Positions 2,390 to 21,759 of a stretch of 32,000 nucleotides of DNA are shown piece by piece; within the stretch, counting starts at the first letter, position 1, and each line of letters starts with the position of its first letter. The notes beneath the pieces are model-generated. The model did no database searches. It saw only the letters and a program-made list of their open reading frames with translations, and was not told where the DNA came from. The DNA is from Bacillota bacterium. Its GTDB lineage: Bacteria; Bacillota; Clostridia; TANB77; CAG-465. Location of the stretch: contig JAEYPQ010000029.1 in the NCBI GenBank assembly GCA_023410645.1, positions 5,298-37,297 on the forward strand. The letters are read 5' to 3'. The position numbers were made by a program, and so were the translations under genes.

Positions 2390-2412
2390 ACTTTATCACC
2401 TCATACAAAATT

Positions 2413-2493
2413 ACACCAAACACATAGAGTGGGTTGCTTATTGCTGCTTCCTTCCGGATCTGACAAGGTTCACAATACTCTATTGTCTGGTGT
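2413..2493 (-). ncRNA. ffs: Signal recognition particle RNA, short (4.5S-like) form
   Basis: The minus strand reads ACACCAGACAAUAGAGU...GUCAGAUCCGGAAGGAAGCAGC...ACUCUAUGUGUUUGGUGU. The universal domain IV motif GUCAGnUCCGGAAGGAAGCAGC is at 2443-2464. The terminal helices pair as ACACCAGACA/UGUUUGGUGU and AUAGAGU/ACUCUAU. The ends are approximate. Confidence 0.8.
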
Positions 2494-2499
2494 ATAATA

Positions 2500-2557: not shown

Positions 2558-3238
2558 TTACTTTATATAAAATTTATAATTACCAGAATCTTTTCTGGTT
2601 ACGCTTATACCATTTGTTATCAGATCTTCTTCTGGAATATTAAAATTAAATTTACAAATATTTATTTTTCCAGTATTATCTACTATATTTAGATTAAACT
2701 TAACTTCTAATTTGATATCACTAATTTTAATATTCATTAGCTTTAACATAGTTCCATCGAAAGTAACAGATTCAGAATCAGATGGTACATTTGCATTTTT
2801 TAGGAAATCAATATTATCAATGTTTAATTTAACTAAATATTGACCATTTTCTTCAATAGGATAAATATTAACTTTATCAGTTTGACTTAGGCTAACTAGT
2901 TCTTTTTCACCTTCTGAAACCTTAATTTCTCCAACATTTGAAGAAGATTTTACTTTTATATTATCTATATAAATATTCTTTGCTTCATTTCCTTTTGCAA
3001 TTAACAACGTTATTTCATTATTTTGTGAAGTATTGAACTTGATATCAGATATACTTTTTGGCGTTTCTTGATTTTCAATTTCAGCTACATTAATAACTGA
3101 TTTAATAACAACATCATTTACTCTAAAGGTACCTTCATTAATCTTCCCTGCTGGATTAAAAACAAACATATAAACTATAACAAGTAGTGCGACTGATAAT
3201 ATTACAATCAGAAAAGGAATAAATCTATTTTTTTTCAT
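2558..3238 (-). CDS. Hypothetical membrane-anchored protein with one N-terminal TM helix and a beta-rich extracytoplasmic domain
   Basis: A 226-aa ORF. The N-terminus MKKNRFIPFLIVILSVALLVIVYMFVF is a signal-anchor. The rest is an alternating hydrophilic/hydrophobic pattern with no motif I recognise. It has a GGAGGA SD and its own promoter. Confidence 0.6.
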   Translation of the reverse strand: MKKNRFIPFLIVILSVALLVIVYMFVFNPAGKINEGTFRVNDVVIKSVINVAEIENQETPKSISDIKFNTSQNNEITLLIAKGNEAKNIYIDNIKVKSSSNVGEIKVSEGEKELVSLSQTDKVNIYPIEENGQYLVKLNIDNIDFLKNANVPSDSESVTFDGTMLKLMNIKISDIKLEVKFNLNIVDNTGKINICKFNFNIPEEDLITNGISVTRKDSGNYKFYIK

Positions 3239-5519: not shown

Positions 5520-5783
5520 TTAGATTATTGTATCATCATATCCTGGAAAATCTTCCTTACTTTGTTGCTCTTCTGATTTTTTAACATCTTTTTCTTCGTC
5601 TTTTGGTTCTCTAACATCAAACTTATATGTATCTTTAAAATTATCTATTTTCTGTTTGTCTTTTACTATTTTTCTATTAAAATTTAAACTCTTATCTAAT
5701 TTAGATACCAACTCAACTTCTTTACCATCTTTTATTACGATAGCACTAATCTTTACAGCTATCCTTTTACCATCTACATTCAT
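5520..5783 (-). CDS. Hypothetical 87-aa protein with a beta-rich N-terminus and a highly charged Lys/Glu tail
   Basis: The ORF has a GGGAGGA SD upstream and sits 27 nt upstream of the T4CP start, so it is probably co-transcribed. I recognise no motif. Confidence 0.55.
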   Translation of the reverse strand: MNVDGKRIAVKISAIVIKDGKEVELVSKLDKSLNFNRKIVKDKQKIDNFKDTYKFDVREPKDEEKDVKKSEEQQSKEDFPGYDDTII

Positions 5784-5862: not shown

Positions 5863-6387
5863 CTACTCTTCATCAAAACTTAATTCTAACACAATATATG
5901 GTCTATTAGGTAAAAGTTTACATTTACCTTTTATCTCACCAGTAATCTCATCTGTATATAATACAGGTCTTACTTCTTCACAATTTTGTGTATCAATTAT
6001 TGAAAAATGTCTTTTCATACTAGGTGTATATTCAACTTCTTTGTATTCGATACCCTCTTGATTATATATTGTTCCATAATTTAATGGAATATTTGATTCT
6101 GTTGCAACAAATCCATTTCCATCAAGTTCACCAGTACTTATTATGGCTTTTGAATTTGTAAGAGTTAATAAAATTATTAACTGCTTTTCATCATCAATCT
6201 TAATAACATTGAAAGTCTTTTTAATTCTTCCATTTTCTTCAGTATCAATACTTTCAATCTTTTGTAAAGTAAGTAATGCTTTACCACTTCTATAATCATC
6301 TTCATTTTTTTCAACAACAAATGCAATAGTATTCATACCAGGCATATCTACCAACTCAAATTTATTCATTTGTAATAAAGGTTCCAT
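5863..6387 (-). CDS. Hypothetical 174-aa soluble protein; first gene of the T4CP operon
   Basis: The ORF has an AAGGAAAGAGG SD and a promoter immediately upstream. It has no TM segment and no motif I recognise. Confidence 0.6.
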   Translation of the reverse strand: MEPLLQMNKFELVDMPGMNTIAFVVEKNEDDYRSGKALLTLQKIESIDTEENGRIKKTFNVIKIDDEKQLIILLTLTNSKAIISTGELDGNGFVATESNIPLNYGTIYNQEGIEYKEVEYTPSMKRHFSIIDTQNCEEVRPVLYTDEITGEIKGKCKLLPNRPYIVLELSFDEE

Positions 6388-9042: not shown

Positions 9043-9198
9043 AATAATACCTCTTTTCTTATTTTTTTCCACAAAATAAGTATAATACAAATGAAAATAA
9101 AAGTCAATAAAATTCATATATATAAAACTGTATTTAACAAATATGTGTTTTATATATAAAAGTTAAGACAAAAAAGTAGACTCTTTTGGAGTCTACTT

Positions 9199-9525
9199 GA
9201 GTATTTTGTAAGCCGGATTCTGTTTTAAATAGTCATTTATCTAGGATATATATCACTATATACCTCAAGCCACCAACCACGAAAGATGACGGGCCGTCTT
9301 AACCTTTCTTTCTTGGTGTTGCACCAAGTGGGGTTTACACAACATCTATGTCTCCATAAATGTTTGTGAGCTCTTACCTCACATTTTCACCCTTACCAGA
9401 ATTACTGGCGGTAATTTTCTGTTGCACTTTCCTTAGGATCACTCCCACTAGACGTTATCTAGCACTATTGCCCTGTGGTGTCCGGACTTTCCTCTTGTTC
9501 TCACAAGCGACTATATGAAATACTC
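9199..9525 (-). ncRNA. rnpB: RNase P RNA (ribozyme component)
   Basis: The minus strand carries the universal P4 motifs GAGGAAAGUCCGG (9494-9482) and ACAGAAUCCGGCUUAC (9223-9208). The P1 helix pairs GAGUAUUU (9525-9518) with AAAUACUC (9206-9199). An extended -10 promoter (TGaTATAAT) lies upstream and a GTAGACTC/GAGTCTAC hairpin terminator lies downstream. Confidence 0.85.
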
Positions 9526-9558
9526 TATTATTATTATATCATATTTACAATAAAAAAT

Positions 9559-9588
9559 AAATAGGCCCTTAAATATTAGGGCCCATTT
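9559..9588 (-). terminator. Intrinsic terminator of the 112-aa gene
   Basis: A GGGCC/GGCCC-cored hairpin (AAATaGGCCC ... GGGCCcATTT) overlaps the stop codon and is followed on the minus strand by TTATTTTTT. Confidence 0.6.
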
Positions 9589-9914
9589 ATGGTTATTAAA
9601 ATCAGTTTTTTCTCCTCAGTAAAAATATATATTTCTTCTAAATTTAAAATATCGGGTATATTATATGATAAGCATGATATCCGTGTAATTACAGTAAATT
9701 TTCCTTTCAGGATATTTTCATATCCTATTATTATTCCGCCATCTAGTATTATGCTGTGGCATCCAAAGTTGTAATCAGAGCATCTTTCACATTTATTCCG
9801 AGTAATAAATCCTTCTAATACTTCACTAGAAATATGAAAAATCACGTTTTGGATATTTTGTATTTTGCTTATTTCTTCAATTAGCTTTTCTGGCTGAATA
9901 GAAACTTTTTTCAT
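9576..9914 (-). CDS. Hypothetical 112-aa Cys-containing protein
   Basis: The ORF has an AGGAGGA SD and its own terminator. It contains a CERCSDYNFGC cluster plus one further Cys. I recognise no family. Confidence 0.55.
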   Translation of the reverse strand: MKKVSIQPEKLIEEISKIQNIQNVIFHISSEVLEGFITRNKCERCSDYNFGCHSIILDGGIIIGYENILKGKFTVITRISCLSYNIPDILNLEEIYIFTEEKKLILITINGP

Positions 9915-10040
9915 ATTGTCCTCCTATAGATAGTTTTTTTAATTAAAATTACTAATAATTTTATGTACATTTATTATATCATAAAAGCCAAAGAAATACA
10001 AATTATAATTATTTTGCAAAATATTTAACATTTTAAAATA

Positions 10041-10070
10041 AAAAAGTAATAGCTTAAGCTATTACTTTTT
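10041..10070 (-). terminator. Intrinsic terminator of gyrA
   Basis: A perfect palindrome, AGTAATAGC-TTAA-GCTATTACT, is flanked by A/T runs 10 nt after the gyrA stop. Confidence 0.7.
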
Positions 10071-10080
10071 ACTAATTATA

Positions 10081-12531
10081 CTATTCTTCAACTACATCAT
10101 CTTCTTGAGGAATTTTAGCTATATTAATTACTTTGCCGCCATCAGACGTTCTCATAAGAGTAACTCCTTGCGTATTTCTTCCAAGAACACTTATATCTTT
10201 AACATTAAGTCTAATAACAACACCGGTATCAGTTATTAACATTACATCATCACTATCATTTACAATTTTAATTCCTATTATATGTCCTGTTTTTGATGTA
10301 GTCTTATATGTTAATACACCTTTACCACTTCTTGCTTGTTGCCTATATTCTTCAACTTCAGTTCTTTTTCCAAATCCATTTTCTGTTATTGCAAGTATGT
10401 AATCCTTTTCATCCTGTATTGGTTCCATTCCTATTACTTTATCATCTTTTGCTAAAGCAATACCTTTAACACCCATTGAAGTTCTACCTACCGCTCTTAC
10501 TTCTTCTTCGGCAAATCTTATTGATAATCCATTAGTAGTTACCATTACAATACTACTATTTCCATCAGTAAGCCTTACATCAATTAATTCATCTTCATCT
10601 TTTAAAGTTATACCTTGAATACCAGTTTTACGTATATTACTATACTCTTCAAGTTTTGTTTTCTTAATAAGACCATTTTTTGTAGCCATAAGTACGTATA
10701 ATGGTTCTTTATAATCATGTACTGGTATTATCGCTGCTATTTTTTCACCTTGTGAAAGTTGTAGTAAATTAACAATTGCAGTGCCTTTAGCAGTTCTGCT
10801 AGCTTCTGGTAATTCATATGCTTTTAATCTAAATGCTCTTCCAGCATTTGTGAAAAACATTATATAATCATGTGTAGAAGTTACAAATAAATGTTCAACA
10901 AAATCTTCTTCACGTGTATTCATTGCAGTAAGTCCTTTACCACCACGTTTTTGACTTCTATATACATCAGCTGCAATTCTCTTTATGTACCCAAAATGTG
11001 TTAGAGTAACGACATTTGTTTCTTCTTTGATAAGACTTTCAATATCAATATCTCCTTCACCATGTGTAATTTGAGTTCTTCTTTCATCACCATAAGTGTT
11101 TTTAATTTCAGTAAGTTCTTCCTTAATTATATCTTTAATAAGTTGTTCAGAAGCTAATACTTCTTTTAAATGATTTATTAGATTAACTAAGCTATTATAT
11201 TCATCTTCGATCTTTTCTCTTTGAAGCCCTTGAAGAGTTCTAAGCCTCATTTCAAGTATAGCATTGGCTTGAATTTCAGATAATCCAAAAGCTGACATAA
11301 GTCTAGCTTGAGCATCATCATATGATTCACGTATTATTCTAATAATTTCATCAATGTGATCAAGTGCTATTCTTAATCCTTCTAAAATATGTAATCTTGC
11401 TTCTGCTTTTCTTAAGTCAAATTCTGTTCTTCTTCTTATAACTTCTTCTCTATGTTTAATATAATTATCTAATATTTCTCTTAAAGTTAATACCTTAGGT
11501 TGTCCATTTACAAGTGCAAGCATCAACATACTTTGAGTTGTTTGCAATTGTGTATGTTTATATAATAAGTTTAATACAACATTTGGATTTGCATCTCTCT
11601 TTAATTCAATAACAATTCTTAAACCTTCTCTATCTGATTCATCTCTTAGATCAGATATTCCTTCGATTGTCTTTAACTGAACTAATTTTGCAATATTTTC
11701 TACTAAAGCAGCTTTATTAACTTGATAAGGAATTTCTGTAACTATTATTTTAAATCTTCCTTTATTATCCTCTTCGATTTCAGCCTTTGCACGAACACAA
11801 ACCTTACCCCTACCAGTTGTATATGCATCTTTTATACCATCTTTTCCTAATATAATTCCAGATGTAGGGAAGTCAGGTCCTTTTATATATGCAATTAATT
11901 CTTCATTTGAAATATCTGGATTATCGATTTGTGCAATAGTACCATTTATAACCTCTGTTAAATTATGTGGTGGAATATTACAAGCCATTCCAACAGCAAT
12001 ACCGTAAGAACCGTTTATTAACAAGTTTGGTAACTTAGCTGGTAAAACAGAAGGTTCTTTTAATCTATCATCATAATTTGGCACATAATCCACTGTTTCT
12101 TTATCTATATCTGTTAACATTTCTAATGAAATCTTATGAAGCTTTGCTTCAGTATATCTCATTGCAGCTGGTGGATCATTATCGATAGAACCAAAGTTAC
12201 CATGTCCATTTACAAGAGGATATCTAAGCGAGAAATCCTGAGATAAACGAACTAATGCATCGTATATAGCTGCATCACCATGTGGATGATAATTACCCAT
12301 AACATCTCCAACGATACTTGCAGATTTTCTAAATGGTTTTTCTGGCCATAGTGAAAGTTCACTCATAACATATAAAATTCTTCTGTGAACTGGCTTTAAA
12401 CCATCTCTTACATCTGGAAGTGCACGTGAAGCAATTACACTCATGGCATAATCAATATATGATCTTTTCATTTCTTCTTCTATGTTTACAGGTACAATGT
12501 TTTGAGCACCTAAAATATCATCTTCGTTCAT
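10081..12531 (-). CDS. gyrA: DNA gyrase subunit A
   Basis: An 816-aa ORF with [30 protein letters not shown] and the catalytic Tyr context [10 protein letters not shown]. The GyrA box QKRGGKG in the C-terminal beta-pinwheel argues for gyrase rather than ParC. Confidence 0.92.
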
Positions 12532-12662: not shown

Positions 12663-13595
12663 ATGAAATATAAAAATTACTATGAAATACTAGGTATAAA
12701 TAGGAGAAGTAGTAAACAAGATATAAAATTAAATTATAGAAAATTGGCCAAAATGTATCATCCAGATACAAATAAAAGCGATGAATCTGAAACATTATTT
12801 AAAGATGTAAATGAGGCTTATGCAACTCTAATGGATGATGAAAAAAGAAAAAAATATGATAGACAAGTAGCAAGATTTGGTTATGGAATTTCTGAAAATG
12901 ATTCTAGTTTATCCCAAGTAAGATATGAAATAAAATCTGGTGTCAATGTAATAAATGACTTATTAAATACTATACTCGGTTTAAAAAAGGATGAAGCTCA
13001 AAATTTTGGAGATATTGATAATGGTCCAAAAGAAGAAAAGAAAGCAAAACAAAAACCAGAAAAAGGAACTGATATAATAACAAATTTAGAGGTGACTTTG
13101 GAAGAAGGTTTTAATGGTACTGAAAAAAAGATTGCTATAAAATCTTCAAAATCTGGTATGAGAACATTTTCTGTTAATGTTCCTATTGGTATAAAAAATG
13201 GTGACAAAATAAGACTTGCAGCTCTTGGTAATCCCGGGAAAAATGGTGGAAAAAATGGTGATTTAATAATACACGTAAAATTAGCCGAACATGATGAATT
13301 TAAATTAGATGGAATCAATCTTATAAAAGATATAACCATTTCACCTGCTCTCGCAGCTCTTGGTGGTAAATATAAACTTACTGTCTTAAACGAAGTAATT
13401 TTTGTTTCACTTCCAAAACATTTAAAAGATTCAGAGATTGTAAGTGTTGATAAAAAGGGCTATATATCTGAAGATGGAACTCGTGGAAAGTTATTATTAA
13501 AAGTACATATAGATATGCCTGAAGATATAACTGAAAGAGAAGAAAAGTTATATGAACAACTTTTGAAATTGGAAAAGAAGAGAGAAAAAAATTAA
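12663..13595 (+). CDS. J-domain co-chaperone of the CbpA/DnaJ class II type (J domain plus DnaJ C-terminal domains, no zinc finger)
   Basis: The J domain is YYEILGI...KLAKMYHPD (HPD motif) and the C-terminal substrate-binding repeats include GDLIIHVKL. There is no CxxCxGxG zinc centre. An extended -10 promoter lies upstream. Confidence 0.85.
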   Translation: MKYKNYYEILGINRRSSKQDIKLNYRKLAKMYHPDTNKSDESETLFKDVNEAYATLMDDEKRKKYDRQVARFGYGISENDSSLSQVRYEIKSGVNVINDLLNTILGLKKDEAQNFGDIDNGPKEEKKAKQKPEKGTDIITNLEVTLEEGFNGTEKKIAIKSSKSGMRTFSVNVPIGIKNGDKIRLAALGNPGKNGGKNGDLIIHVKLAEHDEFKLDGINLIKDITISPALAALGGKYKLTVLNEVIFVSLPKHLKDSEIVSVDKKGYISEDGTRGKLLLKVHIDMPEDITEREEKLYEQLLKLEKKREKN

Positions 13596-13620
13596 AAATA
13601 GAGTCGAACGACTCTATTTT
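13596..13620. terminator. Bidirectional terminator between the J-protein gene and the dnaC-like gene
   Basis: AAATAGAGTCG-AA-CGACTCTATTT, with flanking A/T runs. Confidence 0.65.
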
Positions 13621-14639
13621 TAATTTGTAATTCTCTTTTTTTTGATTCTTATATCTTCACCAATAAATTTACATGCTATAAAATTTCCTAATATCCTTGA
13701 AACAACTCTTTCATCATAAACGTTATATAACTCATTTAAATTTAGGTTAGTAGAAATTAAAATCTTTTTATTTTCTAATAATCTTGTATTTATTATATTA
13801 AATAATTCAGTAAATTTATTATTGCTCATAGTCTCTGTTCCAAGATCATCTATTATCAATAAATCAACATCATATATTTTGTTATAATTTTCTTTATCGT
13901 TACTTTTCTTATCATAGCTAAATTTATACTCAATTACCTTGTCCATAAGTAGTGGTGCAGTTTGATATATTACAGTTTTGCCCGATTGTATTAGTTCATT
14001 TGCTATACAATTTGCAATAAAAGTTTTTCCAAGTCCAGTATTTCCAACAAAAAGAAGATTCTTTTGTTCAATATTATCGATGTTTTTAACAAAATTTTCT
14101 GCTAAAGATTTTATACTTTCAATATTTTCAAGTGGTGATTTATCAATTCCATATTTGGATTTATCTGCTTTTGTAGAATAATAACAAGTATCAAAAGTAT
14201 TAAAATTCTCAGATTGTAACCTTGACATATTATATTGTTTATATGCTTCATTAATAACTTTTTGTAGAAAACACTTACAGTACTTTACAATTCCATTTTC
14301 TTGTATTTTACCAGTATCATTACATATTTTGCATTCATAATTTGGTTCAAAATCTTTTGATGAATAACCTATATTATTAAGTTCTTTTTCAATTTTAGAA
14401 TCAATTTCTAAAAGTCTTTTATTCATATTTTCTTCTTCAACTTGTTTAGTTATATTATCACTAAGAAGAATATTTCTTGTTATTTTAAGAGCTATAATAT
14501 TTCGTTTTTCTTCTAATTCTTGAAGTTTATGATTTTCCTCATATATTTTTTTCTTTTTATATAATATTTCATTTTCTATTTTCTTTCTTTTAAGTTCATA
14601 CTCTCTTTCAATTTGATTATATATATAATTACTCATCAT
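13620..14639 (-). CDS. DnaC/DnaI-like replicative helicase loader (AAA+ ATPase)
   Basis: Walker A is FVGNTGLGKTF and Walker B is LLIIDDLGTE. The N-terminus has a coiled coil plus the Cys cluster CKICNDTG...YCKC, resembling the DnaI zinc module. It lies directly downstream of a DnaD-domain gene. Confidence 0.8.
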   Translation of the reverse strand: MMSNYIYNQIEREYELKRKKIENEILYKKKKIYEENHKLQELEEKRNIIALKITRNILLSDNITKQVEEENMNKRLLEIDSKIEKELNNIGYSSKDFEPNYECKICNDTGKIQENGIVKYCKCFLQKVINEAYKQYNMSRLQSENFNTFDTCYYSTKADKSKYGIDKSPLENIESIKSLAENFVKNIDNIEQKNLLFVGNTGLGKTFIANCIANELIQSGKTVIYQTAPLLMDKVIEYKFSYDKKSNDKENYNKIYDVDLLIIDDLGTETMSNNKFTELFNIINTRLLENKKILISTNLNLNELYNVYDERVVSRILGNFIACKFIGEDIRIKKKRITN

Positions 14640-14654
14640 TTCACCCCTTTTTAA

Positions 14655-15614
14655 TTACATATTGTCATAAAATGATTCTAAATCTTCATATTTTCTTTGT
14701 TCATAATTTTGGTATCTTGATTTAGATTCAATAACTGGTTTACTATATCTTTTTGACTCTGTATCGGTAATAGAATCACTTTCAATATCTTTAATATTAC
14801 TATATCCTTTTTTATGCCAATTAGTAAGAATACCATTAACATAACTTAATGATGGATTTGCTTTGCATACAGTTCTTTTCAAAGCTTCTTCTATCATATC
14901 AAATCCATAATTATATTCTTTTATCCAAGTATCAATATATTGTTCTTCATACTTTGTAAAATTACGAGATAATCTTAATACTTTAGAAATTTTTTGCTTG
15001 ATTTTTAATATATTATCATAACTTGCTAAAAATTCTTCTAACTGTTCAAATGTCTTTACATTTCCTTTATACCAAGTTTCTGCAACAGCATGAACATATT
15101 TTCTATTAAGGGCTTTTCTTTCTTGACAATAATGGAAAAGAGCAATCATAACTTCTTCAGAAAACATATAATTTTTAAACATTGACTCTATATCTGTATA
15201 CCACATTAAAGTCATCATACCTTGGAAAAAACTTTCATTTATAGCAGTAGCAGCAGCAATTCTTTTCCTCTCTTGCTCTGTTTGGGCCTTAGTAGATTTA
15301 GTTTCAATTTTTGGAATATATGATTTATTTATAGCCACTTCTTTTAAATCTATAATATTAAATCCATGTACAGTCTTAGTTATAAGTTCTTCTGCTTGCA
15401 ATCTATCAAAACTAAATGAGATATCCTGCTCAGAAACCATAAATTTCTTTGCTAAAGTCGCTTTATCAACATCAACGTCTTTTTTTGATAAAAACAACAA
15501 ATATAAGTATAGCTTTATATCTATACCTTCTAAAGTAGCCATATAATTTAATATGAACTGATTTGCTACTTCTGTATCATTAAGTTCCAAATCATTTTTT
15601 TGTATAATTTTCAT
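14655..15614 (-). CDS. DnaD-domain replication initiation / primosome protein (DnaB/DnaD-like)
   Basis: It carries two DnaD-type repeats ending in WYKGNVKTFEQLE and ILTNWHKKGYSNIKDIE. It is paired with the loader ATPase 15 nt downstream. Confidence 0.75.
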   Translation of the reverse strand: MKIIQKNDLELNDTEVANQFILNYMATLEGIDIKLYLYLLFLSKKDVDVDKATLAKKFMVSEQDISFSFDRLQAEELITKTVHGFNIIDLKEVAINKSYIPKIETKSTKAQTEQERKRIAAATAINESFFQGMMTLMWYTDIESMFKNYMFSEEVMIALFHYCQERKALNRKYVHAVAETWYKGNVKTFEQLEEFLASYDNILKIKQKISKVLRLSRNFTKYEEQYIDTWIKEYNYGFDMIEEALKRTVCKANPSLSYVNGILTNWHKKGYSNIKDIESDSITDTESKRYSKPVIESKSRYQNYEQRKYEDLESFYDNM

Positions 15615-15645
15615 AACTTTCTCCTACACACTTTTTAGTAAATTT

Positions 15646-15674
15646 ATTATATCATTTGTAAACAATATTTACAA
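15646..15674 (-). promoter_or_regulatory. Sigma-A type promoter for dnaD-like/dnaC-like; it overlaps a 7-bp inverted repeat
   Basis: The minus strand reads TTGTAA (15674-15669), a 17-nt spacer, then TATAAT (15651-15646). The -35 hexamer is part of the TTGTAAAtattgTTTACAA inverted repeat. Confidence 0.45.
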
Positions 15675-15697
15675 TATTTTTTATATTAAAATAAATA

Positions 15698-16069
15698 TTA
15701 TTTTTTTATATAAATTTCATTTTTTAAAACTTTTTCATATCTTTTATTTATATATATTTTTTTATTTTTAAAAAATGAATATATTATGCAAAAACTATAT
15801 ATTAATGACTCATTATTTATATTAACACATAATGCTGCAACTACAGGTAATGTTAAAAAAATAAATAAATATATTGATACTTCAAAATTTAAATTAATGT
15901 ATTTGATTATATGAAATATTATGAAAATATATATAATTATTACTAGCAAAGATTTATATTCTATAATACCTAACCATTTATTCTCCCTATTAAAATTAGC
16001 ATACATTGGTTTCCCATCTTGATTATCCAATTTATCCTCCATTAAATAAATTATTTTTAATATCATCAT
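15698..16069 (-). CDS. Small two-TM membrane protein, PrgI/TcpE (VirB3)-like. The start is uncertain, because the first 38 nt overlap the upstream gene.
   Basis: A 123-aa ORF. It has a short polar N-terminus (YANFNRENKWLGIIEYKS), a hairpin of two TM helices and a basic tail. Its size, topology and position after a VirB6-like gene match Firmicute VirB3 analogues. I found no sequence signature beyond the architecture. Confidence 0.45.
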   Translation of the reverse strand: MMILKIIYLMEDKLDNQDGKPMYANFNRENKWLGIIEYKSLLVIIIYIFIIFHIIKYINLNFEVSIYLFIFLTLPVVAALCVNINNESLIYSFCIIYSFFKNKKIYINKRYEKVLKNEIYIKK

Positions 16070-16877
16070 TCGATATTTTGATAAATATTTGATTTATAAA
16101 ATCATTTATCTTATATAATGTATATATGCTACCAACTAATATTATTTTGTACATTATATCACTTGTATCTTTATATACTATTGGAATAAATATAATCAAT
16201 TTCACTATTGTTTGAGTAAGTATAGATGTTATTAACATCTTCAACCATGTTTTAGCAATTCCTATTGTTAAATTAGAGCTAAAACAAACTAAGCAAATCG
16301 GTGATATAATAAGCAAAAAAATTACTGTTACATATCTTATTGAAAAATTTATTAATATCGATATTGAACCAAACGATATTATGCCTTTTATTAAACCATC
16401 TAGACTTAACAAATCACTTTTCATAAATTTATCAATGGATAAAATAATCTCTTTTAGATTTTCAAAAGTAATATCTTCTTTTGCTATACTTTTAGCAAAT
16501 TCTGTCACTGTATCTGATAATATTGATCCCAAAGATAAAAGTTGATCACATATGAAGTAACTGTTATTTACTAATAAAGATATACATATTATTTTTATTG
16601 TAAATAGATATACATTTTCTGTTTTAAATCCATTATACATAGATAATAATTGTAAGAAAATGTAATATACAAAATGGAAGATAATCAGTGAATTAGCTAT
16701 TATCATAATACCATTTACTTTATTTTCAAAAAATATATATTTTAATGGATCTTGCTTAAGAATTTCTGGAGATATAAGAACTATTTTATCTAAAACTTCA
16801 TAAACTTGTCCTTCAACAGACTTGAATAGATTTTCAGATATTATATTAAGACTATTAATTATATCATTTACTGGCAT
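16032..16877 (-). CDS. Polytopic membrane protein, VirB6/TrbL-like T4SS channel component
   Basis: A 281-aa ORF with at least 5 TM helices. The central segment RYVTVIFLLIISPICLVCFSSNLTIGIAKTWLKMLITSIL resembles the conserved Pro/Trp-containing VirB6 core. Its start is coupled to the upstream stop (TAG-t-ATG at 16881-16875). Confidence 0.5.
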   Translation of the reverse strand: MPVNDIINSLNIISENLFKSVEGQVYEVLDKIVLISPEILKQDPLKYIFFENKVNGIMIIANSLIIFHFVYYIFLQLLSMYNGFKTENVYLFTIKIICISLLVNNSYFICDQLLSLGSILSDTVTEFAKSIAKEDITFENLKEIILSIDKFMKSDLLSLDGLIKGIISFGSISILINFSIRYVTVIFLLIISPICLVCFSSNLTIGIAKTWLKMLITSILTQTIVKLIIFIPIVYKDTSDIMYKIILVGSIYTLYKINDFINQIFIKISNDDIKNNLFNGG

Positions 16878-16878
16878 A

Positions 16879-17109
16879 CTAACTTAACACAGAATCAATG
16901 AACTTTAAGATTAAGTCAATTGATAAAATAATTCCATAACACACAATTGCATTGATTATGACTTTTTTACCAATTGCCATTTTCTCCTCATTGCCAAAAC
17001 TAAGCTTTCTCATAAAAACACCTGAAGCTATCGCAACCCCAGCAGCAGGTGTTGCAAGTTTTACTAAATATTCTTGTATTCTTTTAAAAGCCGTATTTAA
17101 TTTGTTCAC
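16879..17109 (-). CDS. Small two-TM protein, Maff2/VirB2-like. The first canonical start is the GTG at 17109, but the open frame continues upstream to 17205.
   Basis: The sequence is LNTAFKRIQEYLVKLATPAAGVAIASGVFM...EEKMAIGKKVIINAIVCYGIILSIDLIL. It forms two hydrophobic helices separated by a short charged loop, like Maff2-family or pilin-like proteins that sit between the T4CP and VirB6 genes in Clostridial ICEs. Confidence 0.45.
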   Translation of the reverse strand: MNKLNTAFKRIQEYLVKLATPAAGVAIASGVFMRKLSFGNEEKMAIGKKVIINAIVCYGIILSIDLILKFIDSVLS

Positions 17110-17205
17110 AAGCGTAGGAGTAGATGCTCCATAAATTACAGGAAAGATTATTGATATAATAATTATAGATATAAGTATTATTCTTAGTTTATTTATATTT
17201 TTAAC

Positions 17206-19044
17206 TTACTTTTCCTCCCATCTTTTTAACTTTAGTTTATTTATAAATTCAATTTTATTTCCATCAGATAACATACAAATTGCTTCAAATGTACCAAGTT
17301 TTTGAGTTAAATCCTCCTCACTTAGTATATATTCATTCTTCTTTGATATTGAATAGCTTTCAGATAATCCAGACTTATTAGCTTTAAACTTATTAAATAA
17401 AAAATTATAATTGGTATTTTGTGAGCTTTCAGATAGACTAATAGTTTCATTTTCCTTAATCCTTTTACCAACAGATTTTATAATTTCTGAAATGGTATAA
17501 GTATCATCATTTCTAAACCAAATTTTATTAACTAAATTTTGTATTATTACTTTAGCAGCATATTCATTTTTTAAATTATTAATTAAAGATGTATAACTTT
17601 GCATGCTAATGATATTTATACATTTGTATTCCCTTGATAAAGAAAAAAATCTTGCATCTTCTACATTTGAAAATTCCTGATATTCATCACAGATAAAAAA
17701 AACATTTTGATATTTAGCTTTTTGAGATAAAACTTCTTTTTGAAATTCAAGTTTTAAGTAAGTAGAAATTATTTTTGATATAAGCCTATATTCGCCAATA
17801 TTTATTGATAGTACAATTATATTATTTGTGAGAAGATTACTTATATCATTTTTTCCACAAAACTTTTCATATATATTTTTATCAGAGATAAAAACACTTG
17901 TCATTCTTGTTATTTCAGCCCTTATAATTCCTATTGTTCTTTCATCTAATTTAAAATATTCATTTTTTATATTTAGAATTGCTGAATTCAAATTAAACAA
18001 ATCCGACTCTGAAAAGCTATCTTTTAAGATTTTCTCTTTAACGTCTTTAATTTTAATTTCTAGATAATCCTTATCGATTACCATCCTATGTAATTCAAAG
18101 AAATCTACATATTCATTATATATTCTAATTATAGTTATAATATCTCTGATGAAACTTTCTGCCTTGTCTAACCAAAATGAATCTGAATTACTAGTATCAG
18201 TTGTAAGGGTAAGTACTTGTCTTATCCTATTGCTTAACTCAACACTCGAAATATTAGGCCTATCTAAAGGATTATATATTATGTTTGTATCAAGTGATAT
18301 TTTAATTACATCTTTTGCCCTATTGTATTTGTCAGCCATTTTATCAACATACTTAAAATAATTACCTTTTACATCAATTATCACCCCGCCTATGCCCTTT
18401 TTTATCAATTCATCCAAAATGTTTGATATAGCGCTACTTGTTTTCCCACTACCTATACTACCAGTTATTAATATGTTTTGATATAATCCTGATTCAACTA
18501 AAAAAACTTCCTTATTTTTTTCAATTAATTCACCAAGTTTGACATTAATTTGATTATCATTATTTAATGACAACTCATTATTTTTTTGCTTTTTAATATA
18601 TATTTTATTAATAATGGAATATACTATGTATATGGTACAAAAAGAAAAGGTTATATAATAAACTAATTTAAATATAATTATATTTTTACCAAGAAAAGAT
18701 GAAACATTTATATTTTTATTGAATATAGTTATATGAATAAAATTTGAAACGAGAAAATTGTATGTAATAGAAATTTTGAATATTATAATTGTGGTGGATA
18801 CAAGCAGTATTAATATTAATTGCTTGTTCCACACCAGTGATTTAAAAAACATAAATGAAAAAAAAATTTTTGAATTCGAATTTTGTAAATCAAGGCTGCC
18901 AGTTACATTTTTCAGATATTTAATCTTTATAAATTTACTTAGCTTACTTCCAGTAATCGAAAATAAATAAGATTTATCCAAACAAGAAAGTAACTTCATT
19001 GAAATAAAAAATAAATAGAATAAAAGTTCAAAGAAGTAATGCAA
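17206..19044 (-). CDS. Divergent membrane-anchored T4CP-like P-loop ATPase (VirD4/TraD/TraG superfamily)
   Basis: A 612-aa ORF with several N-terminal TM helices. Walker A is ITGSIGSGKTSS. Other motifs are VIIDVKGNY, IYNPLD and SDSFWLDKAESF. Walker B is FFICDEYQEF, followed by IISMQSYTSL. The motif order mirrors that of the 643-aa T4CP at 3561-5492. It starts at TTG with an AGGTGA SD 5 nt upstream. Confidence 0.7.
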   Translation of the reverse strand: MHYFFELLFYLFFISMKLLSCLDKSYLFSITGSKLSKFIKIKYLKNVTGSLDLQNSNSKIFFSFMFFKSLVWNKQLILILLVSTTIIIFKISITYNFLVSNFIHITIFNKNINVSSFLGKNIIIFKLVYYITFSFCTIYIVYSIINKIYIKKQKNNELSLNNDNQINVKLGELIEKNKEVFLVESGLYQNILITGSIGSGKTSSAISNILDELIKKGIGGVIIDVKGNYFKYVDKMADKYNRAKDVIKISLDTNIIYNPLDRPNISSVELSNRIRQVLTLTTDTSNSDSFWLDKAESFIRDIITIIRIYNEYVDFFELHRMVIDKDYLEIKIKDVKEKILKDSFSESDLFNLNSAILNIKNEYFKLDERTIGIIRAEITRMTSVFISDKNIYEKFCGKNDISNLLTNNIIVLSINIGEYRLISKIISTYLKLEFQKEVLSQKAKYQNVFFICDEYQEFSNVEDARFFSLSREYKCINIISMQSYTSLINNLKNEYAAKVIIQNLVNKIWFRNDDTYTISEIIKSVGKRIKENETISLSESSQNTNYNFLFNKFKANKSGLSESYSISKKNEYILSEEDLTQKLGTFEAICMLSDGNKIEFINKLKLKRWEEK

Positions 19045-19061
19045 TTAAATCACCTGTGAAA

Positions 19062-19090
19062 ATTTTAACATCTGGTATTTGATATGTCAA
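19062..19090 (-). promoter_or_regulatory. Near-consensus sigma-A promoter of the T4SS-like operon
   Basis: The minus strand reads TTGACA (19090-19085), a 17-nt spacer, then TAAAAT (19067-19062). The SD AGGTGA and the TTG start follow within about 20 nt. Confidence 0.55.
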
Positions 19091-19132
19091 ACCTTTTATT
19101 ATTTTTCAACAATAATATACAAAACTTCTTAA

Positions 19133-19190
19133 TATTCGACATACTTTTTATAACTTTTATGTAATTTTATATACATTAAAATGTCGAATA
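19133..19190. repeat. 10-bp perfect inverted repeat TATTCGACAT / ATGTCGAATA separated by 38 nt, lying between divergent promoters
   Basis: The arms are at 19133-19142 and 19181-19190. The repeat has a CG-containing core in an otherwise extremely AT-rich spacer. Confidence 0.5.
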
Positions 19191-19253
19191 ATAAAGCAAT
19201 CATCTAGTCATACTATAAATTTCGCGTTTTTTCATTTTTTTTTATTAAACCTA

Positions 19254-19282
19254 TTGACTTTTTTTGAAAAGTATTGTATTAT
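19254..19282 (+). promoter_or_regulatory. Sigma-A promoter of the tRNA operon
   Basis: TTGACT (19254-19259), a 17-nt spacer, then TATTAT (19277-19282), about 20 nt upstream of tRNA-Lys. Confidence 0.6.
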
Positions 19283-19302
19283 ATATGAGCAGTACATTTT
19301 GT

Positions 19303-19378
19303 GGGCTATTAGCTCAGCTGGCAGAGCACTTGACTTTTAATCAAGTTGTCCCGCGTTCGAATCGCGGATAGCTCACCA
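19303..19378 (+). tRNA. tRNA-Lys (anticodon UUU), with encoded CCA
   Basis: The cloverleaf folds by hand. The acceptor stem is GGGCTAT/ATAGCTC (one G-U pair), the D arm is AGCTCAGCTGGCAGAGC, the anticodon arm is CTTGA-CTTTTAA-TCAAG and the T arm is CGCG-TTCGAAT-CGCG. Confidence 0.93.
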
Positions 19379-19384
19379 TAAAAT

Positions 19385-19459
19385 GGCCCGTTGGTCAATC
19401 GGTTAAGACATCGCCCTTTCACGGCGGAGTGAGGAGTTCGACTCTCCTACGGGTCACCA
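19385..19459 (+). tRNA. tRNA-Glu (anticodon UUC), with encoded CCA
   Basis: GGCCCGTTGGTCAA..., with anticodon arm TCGCC-CTTTCAC-GGCGG and T arm GGAG-TTCGACT-CTCC. It is very similar to Bacillus tRNA-Glu. Confidence 0.93.
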
Positions 19460-19472
19460 ACATATTGCAAAC

Positions 19473-19548
19473 GCTGGAATAGCTCAGCTGGTAGAGCAAC
19501 GGTCTTGTAAACCGTAGGTCGTCAGTTCAATTCTGACTTTCAGCTCCA
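19473..19548 (+). tRNA. tRNA-Thr (anticodon UGU), with encoded CCA
   Basis: The acceptor stem is GCTGGAA/TTTCAGC, the anticodon arm is ACGGT-CTTGTAA-ACCGT and the T arm is GTCAG-TTCAATT-CTGAC. Confidence 0.93.
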
Positions 19549-19562
19549 TTACATAATGGTAA

Positions 19563-19599
19563 AATCAAGCCTTTTTATAATATTAGGCTTGATTTTTTA
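19563..19599 (+). terminator. Intrinsic terminator of the tRNA operon
   Basis: An ATCAAGCCT...AGGCTTGAT hairpin followed by TTTTTT. Confidence 0.75.
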
Positions 19600-19640
19600 T
19601 AGATCACAAAAAATTCTAATCTTAAAATTCATTACTAAAA

Positions 19641-19669
19641 AAAGTCACTCCATAAAATGGAGTGACTTT
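19641..19669. terminator. Bidirectional hairpin terminator (the rsmA side is on the minus strand)
   Basis: AAAGTCACTCC-ATAAAAT-GGAGTGACTTT, with A/T runs on both sides. Confidence 0.7.
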
Positions 19670-19749
19670 TTAGATTTTTTAAGCATATATTGGATTGTTA
19701 TCATTACAGATGGGCAATTAATATATAAAGTGATTAAATAAAGATTTAG

Positions 19750-20619
19750 TTATAATTTTATCTTTTCAACTATTTTTATATATTCTTCTAATTCCAATTC
19801 TTCCGCTCTGCAATTTATATTAATTTCTAGGCCCATAAATAGGTTTTCTAGTGATTTTTTATCCATGTTATTAAATCTACATGATTCTAATGAATTAATC
19901 ATTTTTTTACGCCTTTGTGCAAACGCTGCATGTATTAATTTAAATAATAGCTGCTCATTTGAAGTTTTATATCTTTTTATCTTTTTTAACTTTATAACCG
20001 CAGATGTAACATCTGGCGCCGGTATAAAAGAAGAATTAGGCACTATTATTTCTATATTTGTCTCAGATAAGTATTTTACCATTAATGTTAAAATACCATA
20101 ATCCTTAGTCTTAGAATTTGCAACCATTCTCTCAGCCACTTCTTTTTGTACCATCACTACTATATCATCTATTCTATTATCATCTTCAAGTAGTTTAAAA
20201 ATTATTGGTGTAGTTATATAATATGGAAGATTAGCAACAACTTTTATATTACTATACTTTGTATTATTAGTTTTTTCTAAAGATTCAATTATTTCTTTTA
20301 AATTAACTTTTAGCACATCATCATTTATAATTTTATAATTACTTCTATTTCTGAATCTATCATTTAAAATTTCTATCATATTATTATCTATTTCAATCAA
20401 TAATAAGTATCCTGCTTTTTCAATAAGATATTCTGTTAAATTTCCAAGTCCTGGTCCTATTTCAATAACTAAATCATTATTTTCTATTTCTGATATCTTT
20501 GTAATTTTTTCAAGGACATTATCATCTATCAAAAAATTTTGCCCATACCTTTTATTTGCTCTTATATTATACTTACCTAATATTTGATTTGTAATTTTAT
20601 AAGTGTTTATTTCTTTCAT
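19750..20619 (-). CDS. rsmA: 16S rRNA (adenine1518/1519-N6)-dimethyltransferase
   Basis: GQNFLID, the SAM motif VIEIGPGLGNLT, and VANLPYYITTPII. Confidence 0.93.
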   Translation of the reverse strand: MKEINTYKITNQILGKYNIRANKRYGQNFLIDDNVLEKITKISEIENNDLVIEIGPGLGNLTEYLIEKAGYLLLIEIDNNMIEILNDRFRNRSNYKIINDDVLKVNLKEIIESLEKTNNTKYSNIKVVANLPYYITTPIIFKLLEDDNRIDDIVVMVQKEVAERMVANSKTKDYGILTLMVKYLSETNIEIIVPNSSFIPAPDVTSAVIKLKKIKRYKTSNEQLLFKLIHAAFAQRRKKMINSLESCRFNNMDKKSLENLFMGLEININCRAEELELEEYIKIVEKIKL

Positions 20620-20685: not shown

Positions 20686-21759
20686 CTATAGTCCACCATT
20701 TGCTATTAATCTATCTCTTATACTCTTTATTGAGTTACTATATTCTCTATTTAATACACCTTTACTAAAGCATAAACTATAATATATACCCTCACCCATG
20801 TTATATGAGTTTAATGCATATGCCTCAACTGAAGCTTCATCAGATACTTGAGTTCTTGCAGTACCAAAGTACTTAGATAAAAGGTACGCACCTGCTGTCA
20901 TATTATCATATGGGTCATAAAAATTATTTATTCCAAGTTTTGATCTCAGACTTGCATGGTTAGACACGTGTATTTGACAAAGTCCATATGAATTTCCTCC
21001 ACCTAAAGCTGACGGATTATATCCACTTTCTTTATACATCATAGCAAGGAATAATTCATATTGTATTCCATATTTTTTACAAATATTATATGCATATTCT
21101 TGTTGAGCAACTGGAAGTTTTATATTATATTGTCTAAAACCGGCATCAACTGGTGTAGAACTAACTGAAGTAACAATTGCACTTCTTGATACTATTGGTA
21201 CTATTTTTGTACCTACTTCTATAATTTTATTTTGTGGTTCAACTGTAACTTCTTGACCAAGCTCAGCTCTTAAAACCTCTTCATCATTTATATATTTAAC
21301 TAAATACTTAGTTGTTTTTTCGCCTTCTTTACCTTCTTGAGCTACATTACTTGTACCTCTATTTATAATAGGATTATCTTTTGTCTCTTCATTAAATGGT
21401 ATAGATTCAACTACTTCTTCTATTTTAGCAACCATTGGTGTATACTCACCATAAAAACTATCTAAATCTAATTTCGATAATTCCTCTGAAGAGTATATTT
21501 TTATTTCCATTCCATCAGTTACAACAGAATTACGTGCAGGTGATACACTTGCATTCTCACCTACATATATTTTATTTTGTAGTAAAAATGAATCTACTGT
21601 TCCAGATAAAGTCTTTATAGTTCTTACATCTCCATAATAGTTCAAAACTACACTTTTAACTTGGGTTGTAATTAATAATAGACCTGCTGTAGAAAATATT
21701 AATATAATAGTTATAACAATTACTACTTTTCTTAATATCTCCGATTTGCCTTCTTTCAC
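20686..21759 (-). CDS. YabE-like cell-wall protein: N-terminal TM anchor, DUF348-like repeats, G5 domain and a C-terminal SLT-type lytic transglycosylase
   Basis: The TM segment is VVIVITIILIFSTAGLLLI, the G5-like segment is ...VTVEPQNKIIEVGTK and the SLT signature is LFLAMMYKESGYNP...YGLCQI...AGAYLL. It sits next to rsmA, like B. subtilis yabE. Confidence 0.8.
   Translation of the reverse strand: MKEGKSEILRKVVIVITIILIFSTAGLLLITTQVKSVVLNYYGDVRTIKTLSGTVDSFLLQNKIYVGENASVSPARNSVVTDGMEIKIYSSEELSKLDLDSFYGEYTPMVAKIEEVVESIPFNEETKDNPIINRGTSNVAQEGKEGEKTTKYLVKYINDEEVLRAELGQEVTVEPQNKIIEVGTKIVPIVSRSAIVTSVSSTPVDAGFRQYNIKLPVAQQEYAYNICKKYGIQYELFLAMMYKESGYNPSALGGGNSYGLCQIHVSNHASLRSKLGINNFYDPYDNMTAGAYLLSKYFGTARTQVSDEASVEAYALNSYNMGEGIYYSLCFSKGVLNREYSNSIKSIRDRLIANGGL

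Follow-up and report, generated by a model that had tools for sequence, protein, structure and literature searches.

A conserved four-gene type IV secretion module beside dnaD and dnaC in the chromosomes of uncultured low-GC Clostridia

The 32-kb stretch of DNA analysed here (hereafter the window, always at its full length) is a segment of a low-GC chromosome (26.8% G+C) with most of its genes on the minus strand. It harbours an operon for a coupling ATPase (T4CP1), a VirB2-like pilin precursor, a VirB6-like polytopic membrane protein and a small, probably VirB3/PrgI-like protein. This operon is a conserved and selected chromosomal module of a type IV secretion system (T4SS) and not the remnant of an integrative and conjugative element (ICE). 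The module is of the monoderm kind, resembling mating-pair formation class FATA (MPF-FATA), and is vertically inherited. It likely belongs to a domesticated chromosomal T4SS of uncultured low-GC Clostridia from gut and rumen, the components of which are dispersed and serve the host cell; the four genes are probably not a complete stand-alone machine. An initial annotation of the same stretch had offered two options, a remnant left by a clean and very recent deletion in an ICE or a retained minimal ATPase-plus-channel unit with a non-conjugative role.

The conservation of the block is evident from a scan with one genome per species. T4CP1 was found in 59 species-level metagenome-assembled genomes (MAGs) of Clostridia with 36-58% identity to the window protein, carriers including Clostridium sp. 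CAG:1219, CAG:921, UBA1742, UMGS1901 and UMGS1994, and the block is also present on many metagenome contigs. Wherever the contig is long enough, tables of open reading frames (ORFs) and hidden Markov model (HMM) matches place the four genes in the same order; the VirB3-like gene is present in 57 of the 59 genome loci, the two exceptions being cut off by the end of the contig. In 43 of 49 loci no more than 400 nt (median 76 nt) separate the VirB3-like gene from a dnaD gene, behind which comes dnaC, and gyrA is situated within a few kilobases downstream in most loci, either directly or past a few inserted genes. The upstream context varies among genomes while dnaD and dnaC stay adjacent, and T4CP1, pilin, VirB6-like, VirB3-like, dnaD and dnaC form one six-gene unit even where the flanks are inverted. 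Furthermore, median ratios of nonsynonymous to synonymous substitution (dN/dS), obtained from 7-18 independent close pairs per gene, amount to 0.14 for T4CP1, 0.11 for the pilin, 0.135 for the VirB6-like and 0.19 for the VirB3-like protein, with 0.05 for gyrA and 0.115 for dnaC; for T4CP1 of the window and its nearest relative (L006) the value is 0.124. All four genes evolve under purifying selection and the block is retained.

The block is regarded as not mobile because relaxases and integrases are absent from the scanned ORFs, because it is not a compositional island and because its relatives on plasmids are weak or nil. No relaxase, integrase or recombinase family was detected, as initially annotated, among 23 window ORFs scanned with general Pfam profiles rather than dedicated MOBscan or CONJScan models (22 of 30 six-frame ORFs with 100 aa or more and the 76-aa pilin ORF; left out were rsmA at 19750-20619, a truncated mutS ORF at 29400-32000 and six opposite-strand ORFs overlapping them). 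Among 72,556 plasmids, the pilin and the VirB6-like protein had no tblastn match and T4CP1 had 13 weak partial matches only. A compositional island was rejected: the G+C content of the four-gene block (22.7%) is about 4 points below the window mean, yet housekeeping genes nearby have values on either side of it (dnaC 22.2%, rsmA 24.0%, mutS 29.7%, gyrA 31.1%), and the contrast of 12-25% to 37-38% put forward in the initial annotation was overstated. A tRNA cluster adjoins the operon with its tRNAs pointing away from it; an ICE integrated at this cluster was likewise rejected, since the synteny persists where the upstream context is another one. Neither variable presence nor movement from genome to genome was seen: the position is conserved in the 59 species-level genomes and identities track those of neighbouring genes. 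Between the window and GCA_023460235.1 they are 93% for GyrA, 92% for o174 and 84% for T4CP2 (two proteins treated below), 83% for DnaD, 76% for the pilin, 68% for DnaX, 67% for RsmA, 59% for the VirB6-like protein, 58% for T4CP1 and 44% for the VirB3-like protein.

T4CP1 (17206-19044, minus strand, 612 aa, TTG start) consists of an N-terminal membrane region of about 160 aa, a Walker A motif (GSGKT), a Walker B motif (CDEYQ) and an all-alpha domain. It matches the Pfam families TrwB_AAD_bind (7.5e-16, 58.4 bits, cut-off 20.5) and TraG-D_C (3.9e-7, 30.5 bits, cut-off 22), and its Walker A and B catalytic residues are invariant across 28 homologues. An AlphaFold (AF2) model built from these 28 homologues (mean predicted local distance difference test score, pLDDT, 81.7) predicts N-terminal helices at residues 2-27, 70-93 and 114-159 and a helical insert at about 267-400. 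When this model was compared with the PDB by Foldseek, Cag-beta (8dol, 4.7e-13), TrwB (1e9s, 6.8e-12) and DotL ranked at the top, and HerA and VirB4 (4ag6, 6.9e-8) ranked lower; a sequence-profile search of the PDB gave nothing significant, only the comparison of folds being informative there. Judged by profiles and predicted fold, T4CP1 is a divergent member of the VirD4-type coupling proteins, which bears out the coupling-type ATPase first proposed for this ORF. A VirB4 in disguise was ruled out by the Pfam matches, the all-alpha domain and the Foldseek ranking. Metagenome relatives of T4CP1 number in the thousands. In three species-level loci (L023, L024, L038) T4CP1 is represented by two ORFs, a split that could reflect a frameshift, a pseudogene or faulty assembly; the 59 loci show no other sign of possible decay. 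MAGs of Acidobacteriota, Planctomycetota and Gammaproteobacteria (Arenicellales, Pseudomonadales; L066-L081, L083, L084, L086) contain T4CP1-like genes that stand alone (23-29% identity). With the window proteins as queries, no pilin, VirB6-like or VirB3-like gene was found beside them, several being located at contig ends, and in one assembly they sit at the ends of two contigs.

The second gene (16879-17205, minus strand) specifies a VirB2-like pilin precursor, which passes the Pfam family T4SS_pilin (PF18895; 2.9e-7, 30.9 bits, cut-off 26.6). The initial annotation had labelled this small protein Maff2-like; a Pfam scan of the ORF at E<=1 returned T4SS_pilin alone. Across 45 aligned orthologues a signal peptide precedes the mature part, about 80 aa long in the window, in which two hydrophobic helices flank a charged loop. 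The pilin also weakly matches (0.013) the NCBIfam family Mbov_0395, a 'pilin-like' family curated by NCBI for mycoplasma ICEs; a sequence search of the PDB yielded nothing meaningful. By its family profile and architecture the protein is a VirB2/TrbC-like T4SS pilin, which would form filaments. The GTG originally taken as its start is not the beginning of the precursor. Instead, the signal peptide KNINKLRIILISIIIISIIFPVIYGA (about 17119-17205) is encoded in frame immediately after the TAA of the ATPase gene, 5' of the GTG, and lacks ATG, GTG and TTG; the layout in the window is GGAGGA, 7 nt and GTT, and in L006 (about 11830-11930) GGAGGA and 7 nt precede an ATA at the equivalent place. This start-codon anomaly (17110-17208 in the window) is confined to 2 of the 36 pilin genes examined, those of the window and of its closest relative L006. 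Between these two, dN/dS is 0.053 over all 108 codons, those of the start-less signal peptide included; non-canonical initiation or re-initiation is suggested because the start-less codons are under purifying selection. Two side observations concern the pilin. A terminator-like hairpin with a T-run lies inside its gene (17022-17042, minus strand) over conserved AAGVAIASGVF codons, and could be a chance occurrence or an attenuator raising the ratio of pilin to channel transcript. In one lineage (L003/L004), which itself carries the pilin operon, a five-gene insert between dnaC and a dnaJ-like gene includes a gene of the TraX family (F-pilin acetylase family; 18508-19251 in these loci).

The 281-aa product of the third gene (16032-16877, minus strand) is a polytopic membrane protein that stays below the Pfam threshold itself (TrbL, E=0.4, 10.8 bits, cut-off 25.9) and has no NCBIfam match. 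Two orthologues with 60-61% identity to it (P0137, P0144) pass Pfam TrbL_4 with 34-36 bits (cut-off 27), and the five best PDB matches of its AF2 model (pLDDT 79) in Foldseek are TrwI/VirB6 of R388, with non-significant E values of 0.065-0.38 and probabilities of 0.66-0.98. Through its orthologues and this fold ranking the protein is classified as VirB6/TrbL-like, in support of the original label. The fourth gene (15698-16030, minus strand) encodes 110 aa when read from TTG 16030, or 123 aa if ATG 16069 is used; the former start is supported by a database gene model (P0241, 110 aa) and by homologue alignment. Its product carries a conserved N-K-x-L-G-I-I-D-Y-K-S motif followed by two transmembrane helices. 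Sub-threshold matches to PrgI (13), VirB3 (6) or TcpE (1) were obtained for 20 of 46 orthologues and to the same families (14, 2 and 1) for 17 of 47 more distant members, in total 37 of 93 (best values 0.0015-0.0024); none of the 93 passes a family cut-off, and any other family turns up in three members at most. Size, topology and location after the VirB6-like gene fit VirB3/PrgI/TcpE, with no VirB4 gene adjacent. The 110-aa protein is therefore probably VirB3/PrgI-like, as originally assigned: matches to these families recur, and none of them reaches a cut-off. Alignments of the VirB3-like and the VirB6-like family to PrgI and PrgH of pCF10, respectively, by hhalign were not significant (probability 0.09 for PrgI), single-sequence templates being a weak test, and sequence searches of the PDB gave nothing meaningful for either protein.

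In agreement with the initial annotation, no VirB4 was detected in the window by phmmer with seven VirB4 queries at E<=1 or by four-round jackhmmer. For the following comparison we divide the Clostridia loci into two sub-clades under names of our own: sub-clade A, with T4CP1 at least 44% identical to that of the window and dnaJ-like and gyrA genes after dnaC, and sub-clade B, the more distant loci with T4CP1 36-43% identical to that of the window. In sub-clade B, VirB4 homologues (1e-73 to 1e-88 with a Symbiobacteriaceae VirB4 as query) are encoded 4-8 kb from the block, on the opposite strand and upstream of a convergently oriented gyrA. They consist of two ORFs, the C-terminal part scoring highest with the CD1110 and Mbov_0397 VirB4 families and the N-terminal part matching the VirB4 N-terminus and TrsD; TrsD and VirB4 are reported to be paired likewise in the pGO1 subclass and in Patescibacteria (PMC12102498). 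When metagenomes were scanned with a VirB4 alignment, the best 80 of 130 relatives showed, as far as the contigs permit, the order VirB4 N-part, VirB4 C-part, ORF X and gyrA, and most of these loci then continue with convergent dnaC, dnaD, VirB3-like, VirB6-like, pilin and T4CP1 genes. In L111 the VirB4 pair is immediately preceded by rnpA, dnaA, dnaN, recF and gyrB according to the Pfam scan, which gives dnaA-dnaN-recF-gyrB-[TrsD-like, VirB4, two ORFs]-gyrA as the context in sub-clade B. Neither VirB4 nor TrsD-like nor X homologues were found by phmmer or four-round jackhmmer in any sub-clade A locus fetched (about 33 kb in GCA_023460235.1), and the sub-clade A context does not occur among the best 80 of the 130 metagenome VirB4 relatives, which is weak evidence about sub-clade A. 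The two-ORF VirB4 loci are L040, L049, L058, L061, L062, L065 and L087-L166 (e.g. L111 at about 9400-11743); in 8 of 26 loci the C-terminal ORF has no canonical start and in several a strong Shine-Dalgarno sequence is followed by ATA, which may be a start codon in this lineage.

The nearest fuller systems that we found, a conjugation-type, pilin-bearing kind judging from their genes, are on three contigs of Bacillota-labelled MAGs (L072, L082, L085). On the Symbiobacteriaceae contig L085 (989-13816), the genes for ParB, T4CP, pilin and a VirB6-like protein precede a C39-type peptidase gene and a small ORF of 81 aa; a full-length VirB4 gene comes next, and behind it RcpC/CpaB and a T2SSE-type ATPase are encoded. 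The original expectation that VirB4 should follow the small ORF is borne out there. In L072 (1-11738) ParA, ParB and DUF3991-Toprim genes are situated upstream of those for T4CP, pilin, VirB6-like protein and peptidase. The Symbiobacteriaceae contigs look mobile because of these upstream genes, ParB in L085 and ParA, ParB and DUF3991-Toprim in L072.

The window also encodes a second coupling protein, T4CP2 (3561-5492, minus strand, 643 aa), which had been overlooked in the initial annotation. It is of the canonical VirD4/TraG/PcfC type (Pfam T4SS-DNA_transf, 1.5e-77), passes the NCBIfam equivalog model conju_CD1115 (426.5 bits, cut-off 250) and matches PcfC of pCF10 with 6e-54; at least 5000 plasmid records contain matches to it. 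T4CP1 and T4CP2 are alike only over a stretch of 120 residues with 28% identity. Upstream of T4CP2 on the same strand lie o87 (5520-5783) and o174 (5863-6387), which belong to no Pfam or NCBIfam family, and downstream follow o226 (2558-3238, minus strand), an N-terminally anchored protein of 226 aa, the signal recognition particle (SRP) RNA gene, dnaX and ybaB. This arrangement from o174 to ybaB recurs in GCA_023460235.1, with T4CP2 at the same position, and in two other assemblies; in L167, L169 and L170 the pair o174 and o87 likewise precedes T4CP2. In sub-clade B, the 10 kb around the block yielded no homologue of T4CP2. With 84% and 92% identity between genomes whose T4CP1 proteins share 58%, T4CP2 and o174 are inherited vertically and under stronger constraint than many housekeeping genes. 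T4CP2 is possibly part of the same system as the operon. A role of o226 as VirB8-like component was rejected, as it resides beside dnaX in both sub-clades irrespective of T4SS genes and matches no family.

The organization of the operon largely follows the original reading, which placed four minus-strand ORFs at 17206-19044 (612 aa from TTG), 16879-17109 (76 aa from GTG), 16032-16877 (281 aa) and 15698-16069 (123 aa). The near-consensus promoter named there, TTGACA-17-TAAAAT with an extended TG, at 19090-19062 on the minus strand and 5' of the operon, is the best promoter-like site within 13400-19800 with 11 of 12 consensus matches; it is a consensus match only, sites of this class being not enriched in number (55 found, 58.7 in shuffles). 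The Shine-Dalgarno sequence AGGTGA does precede the TTG of T4CP1, and the N-terminus read from this TTG aligns with homologues. Two junctions had been described correctly, a single in-frame stop between ATPase and pilin ORF and TAG-t-ATG between pilin and VirB6-like gene; the 38-nt overlap proposed for the third is probably unreal in view of the TTG at 16030, which leads to TAA-a-TTG between VirB6-like and VirB3-like genes. Downstream, a DnaD-like gene (14655-15614, minus strand; DnaB_2 domain, Pfam 2.5e-28) is the conserved immediate neighbour and a gene for a DnaC-like helicase-loader ATPase (13620-14639, minus strand; NCBIfam PRK06835, 3.4e-93, 312 bits, cut-off 215) the second one. A terminator scan detected a hairpin of this kind 3' of dnaC (13626-13589) and none in the 83-nt gap between VirB3-like gene and dnaD (15614-15698). 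The operon would be transcribed from the promoter at 19090-19062 and the close junctions would couple translation; transcription would probably read through into dnaD and dnaC because the gap holds no terminator-like site, although dnaD and dnaC have a promoter-like site of their own at 15674-15646.

Upstream of the operon, at a distance of 1.6 kb and next to rsmA, a DUF348-G5-SLT protein (20686-21759, minus strand) is encoded, a cell-wall hydrolase with an SLT lytic-transglycosylase domain. The original statement that the window contains no hydrolase does not hold. The synteny yabE-rnmV-ksgA is established in Firmicutes, and on this ground the protein is probably a housekeeping, yabE-like gene product beside rsmA rather than a T4SS hydrolase; it may nevertheless have a role in the passage of the T4SS through the cell wall. 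In addition, the window encodes a class A RNase P RNA (9194-9526, minus strand, 274 bits) and the small SRP RNA (2407-2496, minus strand).

How is the operon best explained? A decaying ICE remnant, left by recent deletion of the genes for VirB4, hydrolase, relaxase and integrase, could be argued from the end of the operon at the very point at which the related Symbiobacteriaceae element continues with VirB4, from the adjoining tRNA cluster, from a G+C content about 4 points under the window mean and from a pilin without canonical start codon. The tRNAs, however, face away, relatives with other upstream contexts have no tRNAs there, the G+C content is inside the range of neighbouring housekeeping genes and dN/dS ranges from 0.05 to 0.19, including the 0.053 of the start-less pilin ORF. 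A recent remnant in neutral decay, the first option of the initial annotation, is excluded because four intact genes occupy the same chromosomal place in 59 species-level genomes with conserved synteny and low dN/dS; we give this explanation hardly any credence. The annotation had also named two outcomes that would speak against its proposals, lack of any kinship to T4SS components, and neutral evolution of the four genes along with a complete ICE at this position in close relatives; HMM and Foldseek searches revealed such kinship and dN/dS, at 0.1-0.2 for the four genes, is low. Also very improbable is a device that is not for secretion but a membrane-anchored apparatus handling DNA in connection with replication initiation, for example by anchoring or translocating chromosomal DNA. 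It would suit the conservation of the six genes from T4CP1 to dnaC as a unit despite inverted flanks, the missing terminator-like site before dnaD and the relationship of coupling proteins to DNA-pumping ATPases of the FtsK/HerA type, HerA being among the Foldseek matches. It would leave an exported VirB2-like pilin and a VirB6-like channel without a known replication role, dnaD is not adjacent in 6 of 49 loci and, together with dnaC, has its own promoter-like site, and the likewise origin-proximal position of the Patescibacteria T4SS has been read as a matter of gene dosage (PMC12102498).

An autonomous minimal machine without VirB4, in which T4CP1, by itself or together with T4CP2, drives both the extraction of pilin and the passage of substrate through the VirB6-like channel, would agree with the lack of VirB4, TrsD-like and X homologues in the 32-kb window and all sub-clade A loci fetched, with the missing sub-clade A context among the best 80 of the 130 metagenome VirB4 relatives, and with T4CP2, whose conservation is exceeded by few proteins of the region (84% as compared to 68% for DnaX and 67% for RsmA) and which has no homologue less than 10 kb from the block in sub-clade B. 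We nevertheless find it rather doubtful: the loci examined cover only about 1-2% of each genome and the VirB4 relatives are the best 80 of 130; the VirB3-like gene, the known partner of VirB4 (PMC12102498), is kept under selection in sub-clade A; at least one account describes VirB4 as the sole ubiquitous T4SS protein (PMC4027160); and sub-clade B holds both T4CP1 and VirB4, so that T4CP1 itself is no substitute for VirB4. Doubtful, too, is a true loss of VirB4 in sub-clade A, with pilus and translocon assembled by means of the two VirD4-type ATPases only (T4CP1, and T4CP2 with its partners); if true, a T4SS devoid of the protein considered universal to the superfamily would have been kept for a host function next to replication genes. 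Of the second option of the initial annotation, retention under selection stands, while the minimal ATPase-plus-channel character is not established because sub-clade B keeps a TrsD-like and VirB4 pair 4-8 kb away and the sub-clade of the window keeps a second conserved VirD4-type ATPase 10 kb away. A split but ordinary conjugation system had also been envisaged; the system is split, but being chromosomal, vertically inherited and pilin-bearing it is not ordinary.

Several points count against a dispersed, domesticated T4SS, which we still favour. All relatives are MAGs or metagenome contigs, and the evidence is computational throughout. The dispersed machine is found in sub-clade B and inferred for sub-clade A, to which the window belongs, and the connection of T4CP2 with the operon is likewise inferred from co-conservation within about 10 kb. 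The VirB3-like status is probable, given sub-threshold matches and non-significant hhalign comparisons to PrgI and PrgH. With no canonical pilin start in the window and its closest relative, the pilin could possibly not be exported in this sub-lineage. Finally, the substrate, DNA or protein, is a guess.

For the dispersed, domesticated system we propose the following history and function. An ancestral operon in the order T4CP, pilin, VirB6, (peptidase), VirB3 and VirB4 would have been captured from a mobile element. The system would then have dispersed. In the origin region of sub-clade B, a TrsD-like and a VirB4 gene are now placed with gyrB on one side and gyrA on the other; in sub-clade A, no VirB4 is situated within 15 kb, and T4CP2 with its two partners resides 10 kb downstream of the operon. 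T4CP1 would act as a membrane-anchored hexameric ATPase of the VirD4 type, the pilin would be exported by the Sec pathway and the VirB6-like protein would form the channel. The machine would serve the host cell instead of moving a mobile element, most likely through contact-dependent transfer of DNA or protein by way of a short pilus of the VirB2 type and a translocon. A chromosome-captured T4SS for the cell's own use is known from Crenarchaeota (Ced/Ted) and Patescibacteria. To these is added a Clostridia lineage from gut and rumen, whose pilin-bearing system lacks a relaxase in the locus, is located among replication genes and has been under selection across at least 59 species-level genomes. 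Our findings provide a Bacillota relative for testing the origin of the Patescibacteria system, suggest that abundant uncultured gut organisms may depend on a contact machine and, through sub-clade A, raise the question whether a T4SS can work without VirB4.

A published description of this Clostridia system was not found in the literature. VirB4, relaxase and integrase, which belong to a CONJScan-type definition of a conjugative T4SS or ICE, were not found, the first in the window and the other two among its 23 Pfam-scanned ORFs. The Clostridia system shares traits with MPF-FATA systems: a VirB6-like gene is followed by a VirB3-like gene, as are PrgH and PrgI in pCF10, T4CP2 falls into the PcfC/CD1115 family, VirB4 of sub-clade B is nearest to CD1110 and Mbov_0397 with an N-terminal part similar to TrsD (Trs system of pGO1), and the pilin weakly matches the Mbov_0395 family of mycoplasma ICEs. 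It differs in that VirB4, a PrgK-type hydrolase, a VirB8-like protein, relaxase and integrase are not encoded beside the operon, in its fixed chromosomal place within housekeeping synteny and in the position of the coupling protein gene, which is upstream of the channel genes here and downstream of them in pCF10. The VirB2-like pilin is a further difference, as according to a 2025 review VirB2 is not part of Gram-positive T4SS except in Patescibacteria (PMC12857230). The Symbiobacteriaceae contigs L072, L082 and L085 resemble the Clostridia block in the order of T4CP (phmmer E of about 1e-45 to 1e-100 to T4CP1 of the clade), PF18895-like pilin and VirB6-like genes. They are mobile-element-like, and L085 continues with C39-type peptidase, 81-aa ORF and VirB4; pilin identity is about 17-21% and T4CP identity 31-36%.

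Outside the conjugative systems, the archaeal DNA import systems Ced and Ted (van Wolferen, 2016; Beltran et al., 2023) are domesticated T4SS with VirB2, VirB6 and VirB4 homologues (PMC9905601). Like the Clostridia module they are chromosomal T4SS derivatives without a relaxase, and their small set comprises a VirB2-like pilin, a VirB6-like channel, one or more small proteins with two transmembrane helices and one membrane-associated P-loop ATPase. Their motor (CedB/TedB) is VirB4/HerA-like, whereas the ATPase of the Clostridia operon is VirD4-type by Pfam and predicted fold. Sequence similarity of the Clostridia proteins to those of Ced/Ted was not detected, PDB sequence searches being empty. 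Ced/Ted is a looser analogue than the T4SS of Patescibacteria. The latter, exemplified by Ca. Southlakia epibionticum (Quinonero-Coronel et al., 2025, PMC12102498; reviewed in PMC12857230), consists of VirB4, TrsD, PrgI/VirB3, VirB6 and VirB2-like pilins, usually lacks a relaxase and is encoded near dnaA, dnaN, rnpA and ksgA, a placement read as a gene-dosage effect (PMC12102498).

Some features set the Clostridia system apart from that of Patescibacteria: the coupling protein heads the operon and is usually unlinked in Patescibacteria, a single pilin gene is present instead of arrays of 2-11, VirB4 is encoded in a separate operon or was not found in the sub-clade A loci, and no VirB1, VirB8 or PrgF-like genes were seen. 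Moreover, the nearest outside relatives of T4CP1 are from Symbiobacteriaceae and Acidobacteriota and not from Patescibacteria. Patescibacteria are monoderms, and the same is assumed for the Clostridia lineage from its Bacillota labels. On the other hand, both systems are chromosomal and apparently vertically inherited, with the relaxase usually absent in Patescibacteria and none in the Clostridia locus. Both comprise a VirB2-like pilin (PF18895 having been used for detection in Patescibacteria), VirB6 and, in the Clostridia with probability only, PrgI/VirB3, joined in sub-clade B by TrsD and VirB4, and both are located beside genes of replication and the origin region (dnaA, dnaN, rnpA, ksgA/rsmA). 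In sub-clade B the whole set of the Patescibacteria kind comes together, a chromosomal and lineage-wide system with VirB4 and TrsD, VirB3-like protein, VirB6-like protein and pilin and with no relaxase. By composition and origin-region context, the Clostridia system appears to most resemble the T4SS of Patescibacteria, its closest described analogue.

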